In this document: positions 2,484 to 22,610 of the stretch, one piece after another
How positions within the stretch are numbered: the stretch's first letter is position 1
Layout: each line of letters begins with the position of its first letter
From: Candidatus Polarisedimenticolaceae bacterium
Lineage (GTDB): Bacteria; Acidobacteriota; Polarisedimenticolia; Polarisedimenticolales; DASRJG01
Reading direction: 5' to 3'
Assembly: GCA_036376135.1 (NCBI GenBank)
Contig: DASVAW010000075.1
Location: forward strand, 3,131-67,130
Length of the DNA stretch: 64,000 bases
Translations under genes and position numbers: made by a program
The notes under the pieces: generated by a model
Told to the model about the DNA's origin: nothing
Seen by the model: the letters and a program-made list of their open reading frames with translations, nothing else
Database searches by the model: none

Positions 2484-5002
2484 GGAGCGGGAGGCCCCGC
2501 GATCGCCGGCACCGCCCCCTCGGGGGACGCGGCGCCCAGCACGGTCAGCAACGTGCCGAGGTCGGCGCCGAGGCCCCCTTCGGCCTCGACGGTGGCGCGG
2601 ATCCGGGACGACTCGGCGACGATCGTGATCAGGTGCGGCCGCTCGCCCAGAAGCGCCCTCGCCTCGGGGGACGATCCGGCCCCGACGTTCCGGACCGCCT
2701 CGCCGAGCACCTCGCCGAGCCGTTCGTAGACGATTCCCGAGTACTCCGTCCGCGCGTCGGCGGGGAGGAGCGACCGGAACGCCGCCGACGCCCCGATGTG
2801 GACCCCGCTCGCGCGACGGTCGATCGCCTGCTCGACGAGCACGCGGCTCGGCGCGGCGACGAGGTACCCGCCGTCGAAGGCGTACCACACGGCGTAGACC
2901 TCGGTCGTCGCCTCGACCGCGTGGAAGGAGCGGTCGCCGACCGCCTCGTGCCGGAGTCGGACGATCTCCTCGCGTCCCTGCTCGCGGGCCTTCGCGTTCG
3001 CCCGCTCCACGAGGGTCTCGAGGCTGCGCTGCACGCGGGCCGGGTCGTAGACCTCGAGGACCATTTTCCAGGCGGGGGAGGGGAGCACCGGGCCGTCGAG
3101 GGCGACGGCGATCTCGCCGCCGAGCGGCCTCGCGACGTCCTCGACGAGATCGAGTCCCGTCTCCCGGCGGAAGCGGGCGAGCCCTTCGGCGGCCTCTTGG
3201 CTGAACCCCGCGACGAGGTCGGCCACGGCCGTTCCGGGCGAGGTGACCGCGAACGCGGCGACCGCCGAGGCGTCGGGGGAGACGTAGCGGAGGCTCCCCA
3301 GCGGCGAAGGCGCCGCGAGCCACGACGCGATGCCGGACCGCTCCCCGGCGAAGGTCAGCTCCGCGGTCGTCGTCGTGCGGCCGTCGTGCTCGGTGCGCTC
3401 GACGAGGAGATCGCGGGCGTTGGCGAACCCGAGCGTCGCGAGCGTGTCGGGATCGCCCTTCCCGGCGTTCGCGATCACCCGCTCGAGGTCGACGGCGAAC
3501 ACGAAGGCGGCGCCGTCGGCGTAGGCGTCGGCGATCCGCCGGTGGAACGCCGAGGGCGCCGCGTCGCCCGCGGGAAGGTAGGCGGCGAGGGACCTCGCCG
3601 TCCCGGCGACGAGCCGGTCCTCCTCGAGGCGGACCTGGACATCCTTCACCTTCGCGACGTCGCGGGCGAGCATCGCCTTCAGCGACTCCGCGTCCCGGAC
3701 CTCGGCGAGGACCACGGGCTCGGCGGGTTTCCCGTCGTTCCCCAGCGGCACCGCGATCACGATCTCGTCGCCGATCGCGCGGCCGTACTCGCGCAGCATC
3801 GCGACCGCCTCGTCCATCTCGCGGCGGGCGTCGGCGTTCCCGGTCCGGGAGTCCCACCACTCCCGCAGCTCCGGCGACTGGTCCAGGTGGCGGTCGAGGA
3901 CGGCGGAGGCCTGCTCGAAGGCGCCGCTGAGGTTCGGGACCGCCACGAAGATCGCCGTGTCGGCGGGGATTCTGGAGAGCAGGCGCGACGCGGTGCGCGG
4001 TGCGGGAACCTCGATCTCGTCCCGGAGATCCTTGCGGATCGAGGCGAGCTCGCGGAGCAGCGCCTCGTACTTCGGCGAGTCGGCGCTCCACGCGAGGTCG
4101 TCGCGCAACGGAACCGGGCGGGCGTCCGGCCGCGACGACGCGCGGTCGCCGGGGCGCAGCATCCGCTCCTCGCCGCCGGTGTTCACGGCGACGGCCCCTT
4201 CGAGGACCGCCACGCGCGAGCCGCTGACGCCGTGGTTGACGGCGAAAATCGTCCCCTTGACGCTCACCAGCGCGTCGTCGGTGCGGACGTCGAGGTGCCC
4301 CGAGCCTTGTTTGGCGGCCTCGACGATGATCCCGCCCCCGGAAAGGGCGATCGTCGCGCCGTCGCGGCGCCGCTTCACGGTCAATTCGGTGCGGTCGCGC
4401 AACTCCACGCGCGAGCCGTCGGCCAGGCGCACGATGGCGCGCGAGCCGGGGGCGGTGCGGAGGACCTCGTTCTCGGGAAGGACCGACCCGGCGGCCAGGA
4501 GCGCGGTGGCGCCCCGGTCGACGCGCCAGAGGTCGCCCTGCACCGACTCGACGGCGATCGGTTGCGCGTCGGGGGGCGGGATGAGCCGCTCGCGCATCGC
4601 GAACCCCGCGAGCAGGGCCATCGCCGCGAACGTCGCGGCGGCCGCCCACTTCAGGCGCCAGGCGCCCGAGCCGGATTCGCGCCGCGTCTCCACCGCCGCG
4701 TCGCGTCCGGCGCGTGCGGCAACGAGGGCACGACGGCAAGGCACGCACGCGCGCGTGTGGTCGTCGACCAGCAACGCCTCGGCCGAGGAGAGCCGGCCGG
4801 CGAGAAACCCCGGGATGCGGGATTGGAACCCCTCGCAGCTGTCGATCGGGCCGGCGGCGGGGGAGGCGCCGGATTCGAGCCCCAGCCGGTGACGGACGCG
4901 CTCGGCGGCCGACGCGGCGTGGCTGGGGGAGGGGCCGTCCTCGCGGATCGCGGCGAGGACGTCGTCGAGCTCGGGGCGACGGGGAGGCTGTTGCCGGTTC
5001 AT
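2480..5002 (-). CDS. Anti-sigma factor: ZAS zinc-finger, single TM, FecR-like domain and a ~580-aa extracytoplasmic domain of unknown function
   Basis: Track ORF 2480..5074 from the internal ATG (MNRQQPP), with an ATGA overlap to the ECF sigma stop. It has the HxxxCxxC motif HTRACVPC and the TM segment [19 protein letters not shown] FecR-like stretch reads [22 protein letters not shown] ... [13 protein letters not shown] could not recognise the long C-terminal domain. Confidence 0.8.
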
Positions 5003-15529: not shown

Positions 15530-17956
15530 TCAGTAGGCCGCGAGCAGCCTGGCCGCCCTCTCGACTCCCGCCTCTCCGGGGAGGAACGCATCCTCGAGGG
15601 GAGGGGAGTAGGGGACCGGCGCGTCGAGCGCGCCGACGACGCGCACGGGCGCGTCGAGGTCCTCGAAACACCATTCCTGGATCGTCGAGGCGAGCGACTC
15701 GCCGATGCCGCCCGTCTTCGAGTCCTCGTGGGCGATCAGCACCTTTCCGCAGTGGCGCGCGACGTCGAGGAGCGTCTCCCGGTCGAGCGGGGCGAGCGAG
15801 CGCAGGTCGAGAACCGCGCACTCGATCCCGTCCGCCGCGAGCTTCTCCGCCACCCGCAGCGCCACGTGGACGTACGCCCCGTAGCTGACGATCGCGAGGT
15901 CGCTGCCGGCGCGCCGGAGCGCGGCCTTCCCGATCGGGATCGGCTCGGGCGCGGCGTCCGCCATCCGTTGCTTGATCCGCGGCTCCCGGTACAGCGCGAT
16001 GTGCTCGTAGTAGAGGACCGGGTCGGGGTCGGCGACCGCTGCCGCCATCAGCGCCCGCGCGTCGTGGGGGGTCGAGGGGCAGACGATCTTGAGGCCGGGG
16101 GTGCGGTAGAACCACGGCTCGGTGTTCTGCGAGTGGTACGGGCCCGCGCGCCGCAGGCCTCCCCACGGCATGCGCACCACCATCGGTACCGATCCCCCCC
16201 AGCGGTAGCGGATCTTCGCGGCGTTGTTGACGAGCTGGTTGAAACCGGTCGCGACGAAGTCGTTGAACTGGATCTCGGCGATCGGGCGGCGTCCCGCCAG
16301 CGCCGCGCCGACGGCGACGCCGAGGACCCCCGCCTCGGCGATCGGCGAGTTGAGGATGCGATCGGCGTACTCGTGGAGGAGCGGACGCAGAAGCAGGAAG
16401 GCGTTTCCGTATTTCCCGCCGACGTCCTCGCCGTAGACGAACGTGCGCGGGTCGGAGCGCAAGGCGTCGCCGACGCCGAGCATGACCGCTTCGAGGAACG
16501 TCCTCCCCTTCGGGTCGAACGGCGGGGCGGGCTCAACCTCGGGGAGGGGCGAACGCTTGCGATTCAGCCGTTCGCTCGCGTTCTCGAGAGGCTCGACGTG
16601 CACCCGCGGCGGCTCGTTCGCGAGGACGCCGACGCCGGCGTTCGCCGGTTCGGGCCAGGGCGCGTCGATGACCTTGCGCGCCTCCTCCTCGACGAGGGTC
16701 TCGATCTCGGCCTTCAGCGCGTCGAGGTCCCCCTTCGCGATCACCTTCTCGGCCTCGAGCTTCTTCGCGTAGGTCGCGATCGGGTCGCGTTTCGCCCAGA
16801 AGGCGTAGAGGTCCGGATCGGCGTACCCGGCCTCGGTCGGCTTCGGATAGTCCCACGAGGGCTGCGGGTCCTTCCCGAGGTAGAGCATGTCGTCGTGGTG
16901 CGCGTGACCGCACATGCGCATCGCGACGAGCTCGATCAGCGTGGGGCCCTTGCCTTGCCTCGCGCGTTCGGCGGCCCACGCGAAGGCTGCCGCGATCGCC
17001 TCGGGGTCGGTCCCGTCGAGGGTGATCCCGGGAATCCCGTACCCCGCGGCCTTGTCGGCGAAGGCGCGCACCGCCGACTGGTCCTTCAGCGGGGTCGAGA
17101 GGGCCGTCTGGTTGTTCTGGACGCAGAAGATCGCGGGGAGCTTCCGGGCCGCGGCGAGGTTGATCGCCTCGTGCCACTCGCCGAGCGACGTTCCCCCCTC
17201 GCCGATGAACGACACCGCGACGCGGTCGACCCCGTCGAGGGCGAAGGCCATCGCCATTCCCGCCGCGGTCATCGTGGAGATCGTCAGCGGCGCCGAGGCG
17301 GGCAGAACCCCCCACGCGAAGTCGCCGGTGTGGAGGTCCTTCCCGTCCATCGGGGGGCCGGCCTTCCCCATCTGCGCGCTCAGAACGCCCCGGACCGCGT
17401 CGCGGTCGCCGCGCATGCACAACGCCGCGCCGAGGTCGCGGATCAGGGGGGCGACGACGTCCCCCTTCCACGTGCCGTCGTCGTTGCGGTGCTCCGGACC
17501 GCGCCGGAGGCGCAGCGGCGCGGCGTAGATGGCCTCCTGGCCGAGGGATCGAAATCCTTTCCCCTGGAAGGAGGCGCTCCCGTAACGGACCTCGCCGCCG
17601 GCGAAGAACTGCTTGAGGCGGTTGTCGACGGCGCGGGTGAGGACCATCCCGCGAAGCATCTCGAGCTTCTCTTCCTTCGTGATCGAGCCCAGGAGCGCCT
17701 CGCGCCGGAGGAAGGCGTCGCAGGCGTCGAGGACCTCCTCGATCGCGGCGGCGTGCCGCTGCTTCCCCGCGACGCCGGGGGAGGTCTCGAACTTCTCCCT
17801 CGGGAGATCCCGCTCGAGCGCCTGCTTCAGGAGCTTCCGCAAAGGGGTGCGCGCGTTCGCCTTCGCGAACGCCTTGATCGCGGCCCCGGCTGCGAACGGG
17901 TAACGGTCGGTGACGAAGGCGGCGAAGCGCGAGGCCGGGAGCTTCGAGACGGCCAT
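15530..17956 (-). CDS. 2-oxoacid dehydrogenase E1 component, fused alpha/beta subunits (TPP-dependent)
   Basis: 808-aa track ORF. The alpha part has the TPP motif FIGEGGTSLGEWHEAINLAA...NNQ. The beta part has FVYGEDVG and IAEAGVLGVAVGAAL. No E2/E3 genes are nearby. Confidence 0.9.
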   Translation of the reverse strand: MAVSKLPASRFAAFVTDRYPFAAGAAIKAFAKANARTPLRKLLKQALERDLPREKFETSPGVAGKQRHAAAIEEVLDACDAFLRREALLGSITKEEKLEMLRGMVLTRAVDNRLKQFFAGGEVRYGSASFQGKGFRSLGQEAIYAAPLRLRRGPEHRNDDGTWKGDVVAPLIRDLGAALCMRGDRDAVRGVLSAQMGKAGPPMDGKDLHTGDFAWGVLPASAPLTISTMTAAGMAMAFALDGVDRVAVSFIGEGGTSLGEWHEAINLAAARKLPAIFCVQNNQTALSTPLKDQSAVRAFADKAAGYGIPGITLDGTDPEAIAAAFAWAAERARQGKGPTLIELVAMRMCGHAHHDDMLYLGKDPQPSWDYPKPTEAGYADPDLYAFWAKRDPIATYAKKLEAEKVIAKGDLDALKAEIETLVEEEARKVIDAPWPEPANAGVGVLANEPPRVHVEPLENASERLNRKRSPLPEVEPAPPFDPKGRTFLEAVMLGVGDALRSDPRTFVYGEDVGGKYGNAFLLLRPLLHEYADRILNSPIAEAGVLGVAVGAALAGRRPIAEIQFNDFVATGFNQLVNNAAKIRYRWGGSVPMVVRMPWGGLRRAGPYHSQNTEPWFYRTPGLKIVCPSTPHDARALMAAAVADPDPVLYYEHIALYREPRIKQRMADAAPEPIPIGKAALRRAGSDLAIVSYGAYVHVALRVAEKLAADGIECAVLDLRSLAPLDRETLLDVARHCGKVLIAHEDSKTGGIGESLASTIQEWCFEDLDAPVRVVGALDAPVPYSPPLEDAFLPGEAGVERAARLLAAY

Positions 17957-18081
17957 GAACGGTTCCCCCGAAGGCGAGCCCGCGATCCTACTCGCGTCCG
18001 AGGCCGTGGGGCAAGGTGGCGCGTACTTCCGGACTGGGTCAAACTCTCCGGCTATCTCGCGGCGAATCGCGACGAGGAGGT

Positions 18082-20652
18082 ATGCCCCGGCGCCAGCGTC
18101 GAATCCCGAGCCCTCCGGCGGCCGTCCCCGCGGACGCCCGCCTGCTCGCCCTCGACCTCGAGGGCTGGGCGGGAAGGCACGTCGCCCACGCGGGGCACGA
18201 CCTGGCCCTGCTGGGGAAGGTCGTGTCGTTGCGCCTGGCCGACGAAGGGGCGACCCTCCAGGCGAAGGTGAAGGACAGCGGGCCCCACCCTTACACGGTC
18301 GCGATCCACGCCATCGACGACGGGTATGCCGCCTCGTGCACCTGCCCCTGGGAGGAGGGCCCCGTCTGCAAGCACGCCGTCGCGGCCGTGGAGGCGCTGC
18401 GATTCCCTCGTCCCGACGTCGCGCACGCGGTCGGCGTCCGGGCCAAGCCGCGCCGTGCCGGTCGCCTGGCGCGCGGGCAGGGGAGGATCGTCACCCAGGC
18501 GCCCGTGCAGGCGGGAACGCTCCTCGCCGCCCCGGGGGAGTGGACCCTGACGCGGGACGAGCGCATCTCCCTCGCCCGCGACGAGGAGGTCAAGCAGCGC
18601 CGCCAGCGGGCGAAGAAGGAGCGCGCGAGGATCACGCGACTTCCCATGAAGGGCGGACCGCCGCGTTTCCGCGTCGCCTCCGCCGGGAAGTCCCCGTACA
18701 CGGTGACCCTGCGCGGGAAGGAGCCGGCGCTGGCGTCGTGCACCTGCCCCGACTGGGCGAAGAGCGAGCTCGACAGCTGCAAACACATCGAGCGCGTCCG
18801 GACCTGGTTCCAGCGCCAGCCCAAGCGCGTGACGTGGAGCTTCGCGAGCCTCTGGTGGAAGCCGCGGAGCTGGGAGGCGGTCGCCCCCGATCCGCTCGCG
18901 GAGCTGCGCTTCGACGCGCCCGCCGCCGTCGATCGCGTGCCGTTGCACCGTTACTTCGACGGCGACGGGTGGTTGCGGGCCGTTCCCCGGGAGGTGGACC
19001 CGGCGTCGTGGCTCGCCGAGGTCGAGGCCGCCGCCCGCGCCGCGGCGACGGCCGCATCGGTCCCGTTCGACGTGGACGGCGCCGTCGCGGAGCGGCTCGC
19101 GGAAGCGGCCCTCGCGAAGGAAGCGGCCGACCGGCTCCGCGCCGGGGCGAGGGACGGCGAGCTCTGGAACGCCCTCATCCCGTCGATCGGGTTCCAGTTG
19201 CACCCCTACCAGGTCGACGGCGTCGAGTTCCTCGCGACCCGCGGGCGGGCGTTCCTCGCCGACGACATGGGACTCGGCAAGACCCTTCAGGCGATCGTCG
19301 GCGCGATCCTGCTGCGGCGGTCCGTCTCCGCGGAGAAGGCGCTGGTCGTCTGCCCGGCGTCGCTGAAGCACCAGTGGCAGCAGGAGATCGAGCGGGCGTG
19401 CGGCGAGAAGGCGCTCGTCCTCGAGGGGGGGCGCCAGATCCGCGCGCGCGCGCTGCGCCGGTGGAAGTCGGGGTTCCTCGTCCTCAACTACGAGCTGGTC
19501 CTGCGCGACCTCGACTTCGTGAAGGGCTCGAAACCCGACCTCGTGATCCTCGACGAGGCGCAGCGCATCAAGAACTGGGACACGAAAACCGCAAAGGCGA
19601 TCAAGCAGCTGACGAGCCCGTGGGCGTTCATCCTGACCGGCACGCCCCTCGAGAACAGGCTGACCGAGCTGCACTCGATCGTCGAGTCGCTGCATCCGCG
19701 CGCTCTCGGCCCGCGCTGGCGGCTGCTCCCCGCCCACGCGGTTCCCGGGCCGAACGGGAGGATCGCCGCGTACGAGGACCTCGACACGCTGCGCGCGAAG
19801 CTGTCGGGTTTCTTCCTCCGCCGCGAGCGGCGCGAGGTCCTCGACCAGCTCCCGCCGCGCACCGACAACACCTTCTGGACCGAGATGACGGCGGCGCAGT
19901 GGCGGCCGTACCGGCGCCACGCGCGCACCGTGGCCGCGCTGCTCTCGCAGAACCGGCCGCTCACCGCCCCGGAGGTCCGCACGCTGCTGCAGGCGCTGAC
20001 CTCGATGCGGATCCTCTGCAACGCGTGGGCGCAGTACGCGTGGGAGTTCGCCGAGCCGCACCTCAAGCGCGGCCCCGTCGAAGGGGACCTGCGCTGGTTG
20101 CACTCCCCGAAGCTCGAGGAGTTCGTGCACGTCCTCGAGGATCTGCTCGAGAGCACGCCGGGGAAGGTCGTCGTCTTCAGCCAGTGGGAGCGCCTGCTGC
20201 GCCTGGCCGTCTACGCCGCGAGCCCGCTGTTCGAGCGACGCGGCGAGCGTGCCGAGGTCTTTCACGGCGGGCTCGACGCGCGCGGCCGTCAGCGGATCCT
20301 CGAGGCGTTCCGCGAGGATCCGACGCTGCGGGTGATGTTCTCGACCGACTCGGGGGGGCTCGGCCTGAACCTCCAGGACTCGGCGTCGGTGGTCGTCAAC
20401 CTCGAGGTCCCCTGGAACCCCGCCGTCCTCGAACAACGCATCGGGCGCGTGCACCGGCTCGGCCAGCGCGAGAGCGTGCAGGTCCTCCACTTCGTGACGC
20501 GCGGGGCGATCGAGGAGCGCGTGCGTCAGGTCGTCGAGAACAAGCGGGCGCTGTTCGACGGCCTGCTTGTGGACGATGCCGACCGCGTGGAGCTCGACGA
20601 CGCGACGCAGTCCACGTTCGTCGAGCGCATGCGCACCCTGATGGGTAATTAG
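18082..20652 (+). CDS. SNF2-family helicase with two N-terminal SWIM zinc fingers
   Basis: ATG at 18082 has GAGGAGG upstream. SWIM motifs are CTCPWEEGPVCKH and CTCPDWAKSELDSCKH. SNF2_N motifs are DDMGLGKT and DEAQRIKN. The Helicase_C region includes VFSQWERLL...GLNLQDSASVVVNLEVPWNPAVLEQRIGRVHRLGQ. Confidence 0.9.
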   Translation: MPRRQRRIPSPPAAVPADARLLALDLEGWAGRHVAHAGHDLALLGKVVSLRLADEGATLQAKVKDSGPHPYTVAIHAIDDGYAASCTCPWEEGPVCKHAVAAVEALRFPRPDVAHAVGVRAKPRRAGRLARGQGRIVTQAPVQAGTLLAAPGEWTLTRDERISLARDEEVKQRRQRAKKERARITRLPMKGGPPRFRVASAGKSPYTVTLRGKEPALASCTCPDWAKSELDSCKHIERVRTWFQRQPKRVTWSFASLWWKPRSWEAVAPDPLAELRFDAPAAVDRVPLHRYFDGDGWLRAVPREVDPASWLAEVEAAARAAATAASVPFDVDGAVAERLAEAALAKEAADRLRAGARDGELWNALIPSIGFQLHPYQVDGVEFLATRGRAFLADDMGLGKTLQAIVGAILLRRSVSAEKALVVCPASLKHQWQQEIERACGEKALVLEGGRQIRARALRRWKSGFLVLNYELVLRDLDFVKGSKPDLVILDEAQRIKNWDTKTAKAIKQLTSPWAFILTGTPLENRLTELHSIVESLHPRALGPRWRLLPAHAVPGPNGRIAAYEDLDTLRAKLSGFFLRRERREVLDQLPPRTDNTFWTEMTAAQWRPYRRHARTVAALLSQNRPLTAPEVRTLLQALTSMRILCNAWAQYAWEFAEPHLKRGPVEGDLRWLHSPKLEEFVHVLEDLLESTPGKVVVFSQWERLLRLAVYAASPLFERRGERAEVFHGGLDARGRQRILEAFREDPTLRVMFSTDSGGLGLNLQDSASVVVNLEVPWNPAVLEQRIGRVHRLGQRESVQVLHFVTRGAIEERVRQVVENKRALFDGLLVDDADRVELDDATQSTFVERMRTLMGN

Positions 20653-20753
20653 GGACAGCAACCTATTTCCGAAAGCGACTCACCCCGATCCGGTAGCCTG
20701 TAACCGGGTCCGCGGCGAGTCGCTTTCGGAAATAGGTTGCTGTCCCTAATTAC
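20645..20753. repeat. 109-bp palindromic element: 37-bp perfect inverted repeat with 35-nt spacer
   Basis: The arm at 20645-20681 (gtaattagggacagcaacctatttccgaaagcgactc) is the exact reverse complement of 20717-20753. The arms are ~46% GC in a >70% GC context. Both flanking convergent CDS end with AAT TAG inside the arms. Confidence 0.95.
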
Positions 20754-21435
20754 GAACGGTGCCGTCGACGCCGATCACGACCTCGCGCACTTCGAGGTCC
20801 GTCCTCCCCGTCGCCACGGCGGCGGAGCGCGTGATCGCCGTGAGCCCGCCGCAGCAGGGAACTTCCATCCTCACGACGATCGCGCGCGGGATCGAGGGAT
20901 CGGAGAGGATGGCCGCGAGCTTTGCGGCATACGGGCGGGTGTCGTCGAGCTTCGGGCATCCCACGACGACCGACCGGCCGTCGAGGATCGTCCCGTGCAG
21001 GTCGCGGGAGGCGACGGCGCCGCAGGTATTCAGGACGACGAGCTCCTTCCCGCGGAAGAAAGGCGCCTGCGGGGGGACGAGGTGGAGCTGGATCGGCCAC
21101 TGGGTCACCCCCGGAGCCGTGGACATGCGCGACCCCGGGCACCCCGCGTGCGCGTGAGCCGCCGCGTCGAAGCGGCGGACCGCCTCGGCTCCCCCGATCG
21201 TCGCGACGTGCGCGCGGGTGGCGACCGGGTCGTAGGCGGGCGCGTCCTCGTCGACGATCGTCATCGCCCCTTGCGGGCATTCCCCGACGCAGTCGCCGAA
21301 GCCGTCGCAGAAGATCTCCCCGACCAGGCGTGCCTTTCCGTCCACGATCGCGAGCGCCCCCTCCGCGCAGGCCGTCACGCACATGCCGCAGCCGTCGCAG
21401 CGCTCCTCGTCGATCCGGACGATCTTCCTGGGCAT
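20746..21435 (-). CDS. 4Fe-4S dicluster domain protein of unknown function
   Basis: Internal ATG of track ORF 20746..21498 ([13 protein letters not shown]) with AAGGAGG upstream. Cys clusters are [11 protein letters not shown] and [12 protein letters not shown], plus a C-terminal MEVPCCGG. Confidence 0.8.
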
Positions 21436-21483
21436 CGGGGCCTCCTTGGAACCGAAGTCTGCCTGCTGCGGCCCGCGGGACGC

Positions 21484-21499
21484 CGTGACCCAGGTCACG
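21484..21499. promoter_or_regulatory. Perfect 16-bp palindrome CGTGACC-CA-GGTCACG (candidate operator)
   Basis: Read directly in the 68-bp divergent intergenic region, 4 nt upstream of the ATG at 21504. A 7-bp stem with a 2-nt loop cannot form an RNA hairpin, so a dimeric DNA-binding site is more likely. Confidence 0.3.
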
Positions 21500-21503
21500 T
21501 ACG

Positions 21504-22610
21504 ATGCGGGACATGCACGATCTCGATCTCGTCGTCTGGGGGGCGACCGGGTACACCGGGCGCCTCGTGGCGGCGGAGATCGCGCGGCGGGCCCCGGCGG
21601 GGTTTCGCTGGGCCGTCGGGGGGCGCGACCGGTCGAAACTCGAGGCGCTCGGGCTCGGCGCGGAGATCGTGGTCGCCGACGCCGTCGACCGCGCCTCCCT
21701 CGACCGCTGGGTCGGACGGGCCCGGGTGGTCGTCTCCACCGTGGGCCCCTTCGCGGTGTACGGGACGCCGCTCGTCGAGGCCTGCGTCGAGCGGGGGATC
21801 GCCTACGCGGACATCACCGGCGAGCCGAGCTTCATCCGCGCGAACCTCGCGAGGCTCCACGAGCGCGCGGAGGCGACCGGCGCGCGGATCGTCCACACCT
21901 GCGGCTTCGATTCGATCCCCTCCGATCTGGGGGTCTTCATGCTCCGGGAGCACCTGCGGGAGCGGCACGGGCGGCAGCTCGCCTCGGCGATCTTCGTCCT
22001 CGAACGCGCCTCGGGTGGGTTCAGCGGGGGGACCGCGGCGAGCGTCCTCCACGAGATCGAGACGGGCGGCGGCGGTCGGGACGCCCGGAAGAGCCTCGTG
22101 CGCCCCCGCGGCGACGGCGAGGGGGGCGCCTTCGCTCCGTTCCTGATGGCGCCGATCAACACCTCGGTCGTCCGCCGCAGCCACGGCACGGACTTCGGGT
22201 ACGAGGAGGTCGTGCGTGCCCGCAGCCTCCTCGGGGCCTGGGCGATCACCGCAGGGATCGGCGCGTTCGTCGCCGCCGCGGCGACGTCCCCCGGCCGGGC
22301 CCTGCTCCGCACCTTCCTCCCGAGACCGGGAGCGGGACCGACCGCGGAGCAACGCGAGCGCGGCTTCTTCGACGCGAGCCTGCGCGGCCTTTCGGACGGC
22401 GCGCCGCCGATCGCGGTGCGCGGCCGCGTTGCGGCGGATGCGGACCCCGGGTACGGCGCGACGGCGCTCATGCTCGCCGAGTCGGGGCTGTGCCTGGCCC
22501 TCGACGAGCTCCCCGATCGGCACGGTATCCTGACCCCCGCTTCGGCGATGGGGCGCCCCCTTCTGGACCGGCTCCGCCGAGCCGGGATGACCTTCGAGGT
22601 GACGGGATGA
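21504..22610 (+). CDS. Saccharopine dehydrogenase-like NAD(P)-binding oxidoreductase
   Basis: Rossmann motif [10 protein letters not shown] and family-like ITGEPSFIR / CGFDSIPSD. An alternative start is the ATG at 21513. Confidence 0.85.

Follow-up and report, generated by a model that had tools for sequence, protein, structure and literature searches.

What is the 109-nt hairpin that lies between two convergent genes, and carries the stop codons of both, in a 64,000-nt stretch (the window) of the genome of a Candidatus Polarisedimenticolaceae bacterium (Acidobacteriota; contig DASVAW010000075.1)? An initial annotation, made from the letters of the window, had proposed either a mobile element resembling miniature inverted-repeat transposable elements (MITEs) or repetitive extragenic palindromes (REPs), inserted at the gene junction, or a dedicated bidirectional terminator or RNase III-type site. 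The former proposal was supported by an empty site in a relative (L004), by copies in other genomes and by a link to a transposase, and the hairpin is very probably a non-autonomous mobile element, namely a dimer of terminal inverted repeats (TIRs) of the TIRtron/TIRYT family (TnpA-Y1 subclass 2.1; Group 1 of RAYTs, the REP-associated tyrosine transposases). This family is known in outline, because the transposases that accompany the repeat align with TIRYTs and its motif RGGGACAG fits the published motif GGGGWSAS; the 26-nt consensus, the lineage-specific heptamer and the breadth of distribution described below are refinements. The parts of the element are as follows.

20645..20753, no strand: whole element, a 109-nt inverted repeat pair read as a TIR dimer (REPIN/MITE-like), with perfect 37-bp arms and a 35-nt centre
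20645..20672, + strand: left family repeat (TIR), with head GTAATTAG, core GGGACAG, lineage-specific heptamer CAACCTA and TTTCC; hidden Markov model (HMM) of the arms, E = 1.1e-06
20726..20753, - strand: right family repeat (TIR), reverse complement of the left TIR; arm HMM, E = 1.2e-06
20673..20725, no strand: private inner part, made up of the innermost 9 nt of both arms and of the 35-nt centre, which contains the 8-bp stem

The arms at 20645-20681 (GTAATTAGGGACAGCAACCTATTTCCGAAAGCGACTC) and 20717-20753 are exact reverse complements at 37 of 37 positions, as the initial annotation had stated; the expected count of such a match, estimated from dinucleotide shuffles of the window, is 0, and the inverted repeat grows to 43 nt if two mismatches are tolerated. 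The small stem noted within the 35-nt spacer proved to be 8 bp long (20687-20694 paired with 20703-20710). The fold free energy, a check that the annotation had suggested, is about -90 kcal/mol per strand and strongly below that of shuffled sequences (-89.8 kcal/mol, z = -12.5, for the + strand; -92.1 kcal/mol, z = -14.5, for the - strand). The arms are also AT-rich, as had been claimed: their GC content, counted by hand, is 17/37 (46%) as against about 70% around them, and in 100-nt windows the local GC is 0.57-0.61 at the element and 0.65-0.80 in the flanks. The element is by a wide margin the longest inverted repeat of the window, and no further copy of the arm or of the family motif was found in the 64 kb, even with three mismatches or with the 20-nt core alone. 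Rfam models matched neither the window nor the elements of 20 family loci, the only hits being a tmRNA and a tRNA gene in L043. The hairpin is real and statistically extreme.

The outer 26-28 nt of each arm (GTAATTAGGGACAG-CAACCTA-TTTCC) fit a repeat that is spread across phyla, TAA(A/T)T-RGGGACAG-[~7 variable nt]-TTTTCC, and that in most cases forms inverted pairs separated by a loop of 2-70 nt. A scan of metagenome contigs with the pattern GTAAWTAGGGACAG-N7-TTTCC identified 54 loci, and a scan of contigs from one genome per species with the same pattern minus its first G identified at least 120; by an arithmetic estimate, roughly 9 and 35 matches, respectively, are expected by chance in about 0.6 Tb. 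A feature that formed no part of the pattern, either a TIRYT gene or, within 260 nt, an inverted partner arm whose variable core is complementary, was present at 30 of the 54 metagenome loci and at 60 of the 120 genome loci among the matches listed. Eighty hairpins with perfect arms of at least 16 bp share the repeat, followed by a loop of 1-170 nt (mostly 2-70) and the complement, and many family arms carry a small internal stem, AAATAGG/CCTATTT. Of 239 distinct family arms, 179 have A and 60 have G at position 0 of the motif; the remaining GGGACAG is invariant, an invariance that is built into the selection of the arms. An HMM built from these 239 arms yields the consensus stated above and matches the window solely at the two arms of the hairpin, with E about 1e-6 for each. 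The left TIR is identical at 25 of 26 positions to arms in L020 and L185, and at 26 of 28 to an arm in L160 (Holophagales), and the resemblance of the window copy to other family members extends no farther than 25-28 nt. Beyond that point, the remaining 9-11 nt of each arm and the centre match none of the 185 retrieved loci and belong to the window copy alone, and a motif of its centre, CCTGTAACCGGG, resembles the loop CCTGTTACCCGGG of the element in a relative described below, whose Fe-S protein is 91% identical.

The hosts of the repeat have a GC content of 37-72%, and the TIR is AT-rich whatever that of the host. They belong to Planctomycetota, Verrucomicrobiota, Elusimicrobia, Omnitrophota, Alpha-, Beta-, Gamma- and Deltaproteobacteria, Nitrospirae, Gemmatimonadota, Sumerlaeota and Acidobacteriota (Sulfopaludibacter, Bryobacteraceae, Holophagales and isolate KM4344-29). 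Four matches consisting of a single arm without an inverted partner, in L180 (a metagenome-assembled genome (MAG) of Methanosarcinales), L182 (Yonathbacteria), L155 (Vibrio sp. MA40-2) and L125 (Lachnospiraceae), were rejected as probably due to chance. A scan of viral contigs with the motif gave 0 hits, and full-text literature searches with 9-11-mers of the motif yielded nothing beyond unrelated primers and sequences. Several genomes contain multiple copies, and each genome has its own variable heptamer, as in the following cases.

Sphingomonadales BP_708: TCCCTAT/TCCCTCT type, at least 15 copies
Rhizomicrobium SMAG_U5480: GAAACCA/GATACCA type, 6 copies
Burkholderiales SMAG_U16218: ACCTCAT type, multi-copy
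Omnitrophota ZodW_Metabat.114: CGACCAT type, multi-copy
Verrucomicrobiota MAG (L073/L078/L162): three copies at different loci, identical or nearly so, including a 36-nt loop

The six Rhizomicrobium copies, whose flanks are unrelated, start with GTAATTAGGGACAG and finish with CTGTCCCTAATTAC exactly as the window element does, so that the ends GTAATTAG...CTAATTAC are common to all seven. No direct repeats indicative of target duplication were found around the multi-copy family members, and the flanks are unrelated between copies.

Several of these loci contain additional structures. In Sphingomonadales BP_708 (L074, L113, L152 and L167; for example, L167 2064-2115), a second repeat is built on GGGGACAG and has the form GGGGACAGTTACCGGGGACAGTTAC-TG-GTAACTGTCCCCGGTAACTGTCCCC, with a doubled unit in each arm, and at several loci it occurs alongside the TAAATAGGGACAGTCCCT family. 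In Burkholderiales SMAG_U16218, composite copies of ~200 nt (L112 ~1540-1740 and L140 ~3730-3920) consist of two family arms around a conserved internal hairpin (ctcggcttttctggctgg...ccagccagaaaagccgag), so that in some lineages the mobile unit would include structured cargo. In L043 (2359-2764, 4253-4317 and 4360-4440), a tRNA gene and a tmRNA gene are located ~40 nt and ~1.5 kb, respectively, from a family hairpin.

When the open reading frames (ORFs) adjoining the motif were clustered, one recurrent protein of ~225 aa emerged, which matches the Pfam domain Y1_Tnp (PF01797; IS200-like HUH/Tyr) with E = 1e-12 to 4e-16 and whose best NCBIfam match is REP_Tyr_transpos (REP-associated tyrosine transposase), at 66-74 bits, below the 80-bit cutoff. 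This Y1 transposase is encoded between or beside the arms at 11 of the 54 metagenome loci and at 11 of the 120 genome loci among the matches listed (22/174), a frequency far above the chance value, estimated at a fraction of a percent per 8-kb locus for a gene that occurs once or twice per genome. The arms are inverted around the transposase gene, one upstream and one downstream, with matching variable cores, and in L062 and L134 a complete hairpin is present on each side of the gene. The proteins contain the motifs NH[VI]H, W[QE] and Y[VI]E.NP and, aligned across more than 90% of their length, share 40-50% identity with the TIRYTs pca3049, aba2776 (Koribacter), gsu2396 and pfs148A (E = 1e-58 to 1e-74), the sequences of which were taken from Additional file 5 of Di Nocera, De Gregorio and Rocco (2013, PMC3733652); the canonical RAYT pfs3939 gave partial matches only (E = 1e-8 to 1e-12). 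A search of PDB sequences with one TIRYT-like protein found no match, and the C-terminal helix-turn-helix (HTH)-like domain reported by Quentin et al. was not detected with Pfam at a relaxed threshold. With small doubt, the transposases can be assigned to the TIRYT type, TnpA-Y1 subclass 2.1, on the basis of comparison with TIRYTs and with pfs3939, subclass 2.4 being set apart by its description. Among the associated genes, those in L022 (1440-2240) and L027 (320-1110 and 4270-4310) are flanked by tandem direct repeats of the TCCCTAT type, and the TIRYT gene of L027 appears to be split into two ORFs (413-739 and 788-1105) and may be a pseudogene.

RAYT-like genes flanked by long TIRs that share GGGGWSAS, rather than by GTAG REPs, have been named TIRtrons and their enzymes TIRYTs; the TIR families are moderately abundant, occur as singles, dimers and clusters, and are found in bacteria that include Acidobacteria (Di Nocera, De Gregorio and Rocco, 2013, PMC3733652). 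Most TIRYTs fall into TnpA-Y1 subclass 2.1, which is characterized by NHVH, W[EQ], a YIELNP-type Y motif, a length of about 238 aa, a C-terminal HTH-like tail and a wide distribution (Quentin et al., 2018, PMC6006769), and RAYT Group 1 is the most widely distributed RAYT group, with flanking 16-mers that recur roughly a dozen times in each replicon (Bertels et al., 2017, PMC5581495). At the level of the family, the present repeats resemble TIRtron TIRs in their occurrence as singles, dimers and clusters, in their moderate copy number and in their wide phyletic spread, Acidobacteria included, as well as in the arrangement of arms around a ~225-240-aa Y1 transposase with NH[VI]H, W[QE] and Y..NP. 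The family motif RGGGACAG fits GGGGWSAS at 7-8 of its 8 positions; the window motif AGGGACAG fits at 7 of 8, its first G being replaced by A, and GGGGACAG is found in a quarter of the family arms. Compared with the published 8-nt motif, the extended consensus TAA(A/T)T-RGGGACAG-N7-TTTTCC with its lineage-specific heptamer is more detailed. Unlike a TIRtron, the window lacks a TIRYT gene (within the 64 kb), and, unlike typical family members, whose arms are 20-31 bp long, its copy has perfect arms of 37 bp and a private structured centre.

To examine the junction itself, contigs of relatives were recovered via both flanking proteins, with synteny of the genes for saccharopine dehydrogenase, the Fe-S protein, the SNF2 helicase and the E1 dehydrogenase. 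This block is syntenic in all close relatives, and the flanking coding DNA aligns well, but the junction is different in every lineage (protein identities 78-93%). The alignment of orthologous junctions and the search for copies and empty sites, both of which the initial annotation had recommended, gave dispersed copies in other genomes and the following five states among the window and its relatives.

L004 (Fe-S protein 78% identical): empty site, without a spacer, the stop codons overlapping in CTAG (ATGACCTAGTCCCG)
L003 (Fe-S protein 84%): 19-nt palindrome (single repeat), AATAGGGAC-T-GTCCCTATT
L001/L002 (Fe-S protein 91%): 65-nt perfect hairpin, GCGTAAATAGGGACAGTCCCTCTTTTCC, a 9-nt loop and the complement, with a core unlike that of the window
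L005-L011 (five samples; SNF2 helicase 93%): 63-nt imperfect, decayed copy
Window: 109-nt perfect hairpin

All occupied sites have (G)TAA(A/T)TAGGGAC in common, and a longer head, GTAA(A/T)TAGGGACAG, together with a TTTC(C) tail, is common to the L001/L002 dimer, the decayed L005 copy and the window. The heptamer between GGGACAG and TTTCC is CAACCTA in the window and TCCCTCT in the 91% relative and differs at 6 of 7 positions, yet the arms are perfectly complementary in both. Such a pattern would not be expected of an ordinary conserved terminator. The 63-nt allele retains both outer ends of the window element, its left arm being truncated and rearranged.

Two of the alleles show further peculiarities. 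The 63-nt allele (GTGATTAGGGACAGCAGTGGTGACTGTCCCCATTTCGAAATAGGTTGCTGTCGCTAATTAC; for example, L005 5826-5888) is identical across five sequencing runs and holds a short internal GGGACAG/CTGTCCC hairpin and a near-palindrome, CCCATTTCGAAATAGG; it looks like a template-switch rearrangement product of a window-type dimer. In the 91% relative (L001 6683-6700, L002 2272-2290 and the opposite flank), a degenerate extra head of ~11 nt stands beside the perfect 28-30-bp arms, GCGTAATCGGG adjoining GCGTAAATAGGG and CGTCATTAGGG adjoining CGTAAATAGGG, and the gene ends of this relative also look repeat-derived.

The genes that meet at the element, and their stop codons, are located as follows.

18016..20652, + strand: SNF2-family helicase with a SWIM zinc finger (SNF2-rel_dom, Helicase_C and SWIM domains); start codon uncertain
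20650..20652, + strand: stop codon TAG of the SNF2/SWIM helicase, within the element head
20746..21435, - strand: 4Fe-4S/AF_0155-type protein of 229 aa, 100% identical to NCBI HEX6851107.1
20746..20748, - strand: stop codon TAG of the 4Fe-4S protein, within the element head

The helicase ORF terminates in ATG GGT AAT TAG and that of the 4Fe-4S protein in CGT AAT TAG. These ORF ends confirm that both convergent stop codons fall in the outer 8 nt of the arms and that the proteins end in GN* and RN*, as had been described. The element supplies the last codon (AAT) and the stop codon of each gene, plus the third base of the preceding Gly codon in the helicase gene and two bases of the Arg codon in the 4Fe-4S gene. 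Its head, G-TAA-T-TAG, shuts two reading frames within the first 8 nt (TAA and TAG), and the third frame reaches a TAA at the far end, so that, as read directly from the letters, the palindrome shuts all three frames from either side. Because the Rhizomicrobium copies share the exact termini of the window element, the 8 nt that provide both stop codons belong to the element and not to the genes. Stop usage looks opportunistic, because it differs between the junction alleles; the helicase ends in ...LMGN* in the window and in ...LMA*, ...LMGS* or ...LMT* in the relatives. Across the family, in 52 of 260 distinct heads the TAA terminates an upstream ORF of 150 codons or more, as compared with 24 in the TAG frame and 24 in the third frame, all three counts being raised by spurious ORFs in GC-rich DNA; this modest excess of the TAA frame suggests that members of the family often land at the ends of genes.

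At the window junction, long shadow ORFs (17910-20648 on the + strand; 20750-21739 and 18052-20661 on the - strand) also stop at the TAA of the element head; they have no Pfam match, are typical high-GC artefacts and could mislead gene callers. The divergent neighbour of the helicase gene (18016-20652, + strand) encodes a fused E1 alpha/beta 2-oxoacid dehydrogenase (15530-17956, - strand).

Whether the hairpin might instead be a canonical REP or REPIN has to be considered, since it resembles the REPIN/REP-RAYT system (Bertels and Rainey, 2011, PMC3116915; Nunvar et al., 2010, PMC2817692) in combining two inverted repeats and a spacer into one long hairpin, in being non-autonomous and apparently served by a single-copy Y1 transposase that is flanked by the same repeats, and in its extragenic position, which for such elements is often between convergent genes and where the orthologous site persists with decay to singlets. 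The 'double-foot' long REPs of subclass 2.4 (Quentin et al., 2018, Table S1, PMC6006769) look similar as well: they carry a tag on both hairpin ends (xTAG...CTAx), and their stems begin with GGGACAG or GGGCAG, as in GTAGGGACAGAC... and ATAGGGCAGGTTT-37 nt-AAACCTGTCCCTAC. A REP/REPIN served by a Group 2 or 3 RAYT, or a subclass 2.4 REP, rather than a TIRYT TIR, would also accord with the best NCBIfam match of the associated proteins and with the small internal stem of many arms. It is nevertheless unlikely that the element is of either kind. The foot GT[AG]G, which is the criterion for REPs (PMC6006769), is absent, the window foot being TTAG and the family consensus (A/T)TAG (thus TTAG or ATAG), and the NCBIfam scores stay below the cutoff. 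The proteins probably belong to another subclass, aligning in full length with TIRYTs and weakly with RAYT pfs3939. In subclass 2.4, the REPs have GTAG/CTAC feet and the accompanying transposases, from Cyanobacteria and Bacteroidetes, are ~194 aa long, whereas the proteins here match TIRYTs. The copy number is apparently far below that of REPs (more than 100 per genome), the density in the source genome, one copy in the 64 kb, arguing against a REP-level copy number.

A hairpin that evolved in place as an insulator, its likeness to a repeat being incidental, was the other answer offered by the initial annotation. Its position exactly between convergent genes and its stability on both strands would suit a dedicated bidirectional terminator or RNase III-type site, as would the lack of a spacer in the other convergent pairs of the window: the tight spacing claimed for such pairs agrees with the three that were recovered (gaps of 1, 3 and 8 nt), in a crude and incomplete GC3-based gene call that missed genes including the 4Fe-4S gene itself. 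REP-type elements are moreover known as terminators and mRNA stabilisers (Di Nocera et al., PMC3733652). However, no T tract follows the stem, which is succeeded by GAACGG and CCATCA, and a terminator scan of 19500-22000 was empty; an intrinsic terminator has a short GC-rich stem, a 3-8-nt loop and a T/U tract, as opposed to a 37-bp stem at 46% GC. The junction is not conserved, the 78% relative lacking a hairpin and others having different hairpins, and identical 26-nt ends recur across many phyla, at loci unrelated to this one, and flank transposase genes. A terminator as the origin of the element is thus largely refuted and distinctly improbable, and a secondary effect at the RNA level is possible. 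Still less credible is a palindrome made and enlarged in place, without transposition, by template switching (quasi-palindrome correction) at the CTAG stop overlap. Sizes of 0, 19, 63, 65 and 109 nt at one site, perfect arms with cores that differ between lineages, and the private inner arms and centre of each copy are what such a process would produce, but it leaves unexplained that the outer 26 nt are a repeat of Planctomycetota, Proteobacteria, Verrucomicrobiota and others that flanks TIRYT genes; it may nonetheless account for the 9-11 additional bp of perfect stem. The possibility that the element is a MITE of a DDE transposon whose insertion duplicates TA, as in the IS630/Tc1-mariner type, or some other short target is slightest of all. 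The perfect terminal inverted repeats and the TA dinucleotides at both ends, which had been taken as compatible with a TA duplication, agree with it, but no direct target duplication was found: the flanks in the 91% relative (TAAATA/TATTTA) are inverted, not direct, those of the multi-copy elements, including the six Rhizomicrobium copies, are unrelated, and the only transposase recurrently associated with the repeat is of the Y1/HUH type. MITEs of enterobacteria and neisseriae, of the Correia (CREE/NEMIS) and ERIC types, are ~100-150-nt hairpins at gene ends that are co-transcribed and alter the fate of mRNAs; Correia elements duplicate TA and have no Y1 transposase, and the sequences of these elements are unrelated to that of the window. 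Four further candidates were rejected: an integron attC site (RYYYAAC/GTTRRRY is not matched by the ends, and such sites are not typically perfectly symmetrical), IS66-type GTAA ends (an 8-bp duplication is lacking), dif, parS or telomere-resolution sites (wrong architecture) and an operator site (the position is between two 3' ends).

How would a TIR dimer have come to lie at this junction? In HUH/Y1 systems such as IS200/IS605 and TnpA-REP, single-stranded DNA is recognised in its folded form by the enzyme, whose cutting and joining leave no target duplication. The window element would consist of two inverted TIR copies placed head-to-head around a short spacer, in the fashion of REPINs and MITEs, and such a dimer could be the minimal substrate mobilised in trans by a TIRYT, the hairpin or the TIR serving as the recognition element. 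By analogy, a TIRYT probably inserted or replaced the element in trans, in single-stranded form, and the element would have come down on the overlapping stops of both genes or taken their place; since the head G-TAA-T-TAG itself brings stops, both genes would have stayed intact, with one new C-terminal residue each. The presence of different cores at one site in sister lineages points to replacement or re-insertion at an occupied site, or to conversion from another copy, rather than to point mutation. Template switching during replication probably added the extra 9-11 bp of perfect pairing and keeps the arms identical. At the RNA level, each convergent mRNA would end in a ~37-bp hairpin that starts 5 nt before the stop codon. 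Such a hairpin should block read-through and 3' exonucleases from both sides, which is a weaker expectation, and the stop codons within the stem may slow termination or lower protein output through ribosome stalling; a comparable effect on protein output via stalling was reportedly seen by Liang, Rudd and Deutscher in 2015 for E. coli REPs within about 15 nt of a stop codon.

Several points weigh against the TIR-dimer interpretation. No transposase lies near the element, an observation of the initial annotation that is correct for the 64 kb, and neither a TIRYT gene (by tblastn) nor a second copy was found in the window or in the ~20 kb around the junction of the relatives. Since the centre and the innermost 9-11 nt of the arms are peculiar to the window copy, part of the perfect 37-bp symmetry would have arisen locally. 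Some single-arm pattern matches are probably due to chance, and family membership is partly circular, the search pattern having been derived from the window and its relative; independent features, namely partner arms, TIRYT genes and repeats within genomes, answer this circularity at the family level only. The effects proposed at the RNA level are purely conjectural. To our knowledge, transposition by a TIRYT has never been shown experimentally. Assays of this kind are called for by Di Nocera et al. (PMC3733652).

A bolder and rather doubtful extension of the TIR-dimer interpretation would combine stop-bearing heads, a recognition code in the core and homing to a pre-existing copy into one functional design. 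The TAA(A/T)TAG heads on both arms would permit harmless insertion onto, or replacement of, stop codons; the lineage-specific core of ~7 nt, which matches the core around the TIRYT gene of the same lineage, could be a recognition code that co-evolves with the transposase; and the different cores at the same junction in sister lineages would reflect homing (site-specific replacement) rather than random insertion.

With the strength indicated above, an odd hairpin in the genome of an uncultured member of the Polarisedimenticolaceae is identified as a copy of a transposon-derived repeat. It belongs to a family, TIRtron/TIRYT, that was only briefly described in 2013 and is not known to have been tested biochemically, and that the extended 26-nt consensus detects in genomes of widely differing GC content across many phyla. 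The relatives add evidence of presence, absence and turnover at one orthologous site, and the window provides a clean natural case in which an element donates the stop codons of two genes. For annotators, such elements are better masked than called as terminators or small RNAs, and, for the biology of the family, they constitute a tractable substrate with which the function of the Group 1 RAYT/TIRYT enzymes may be approached.

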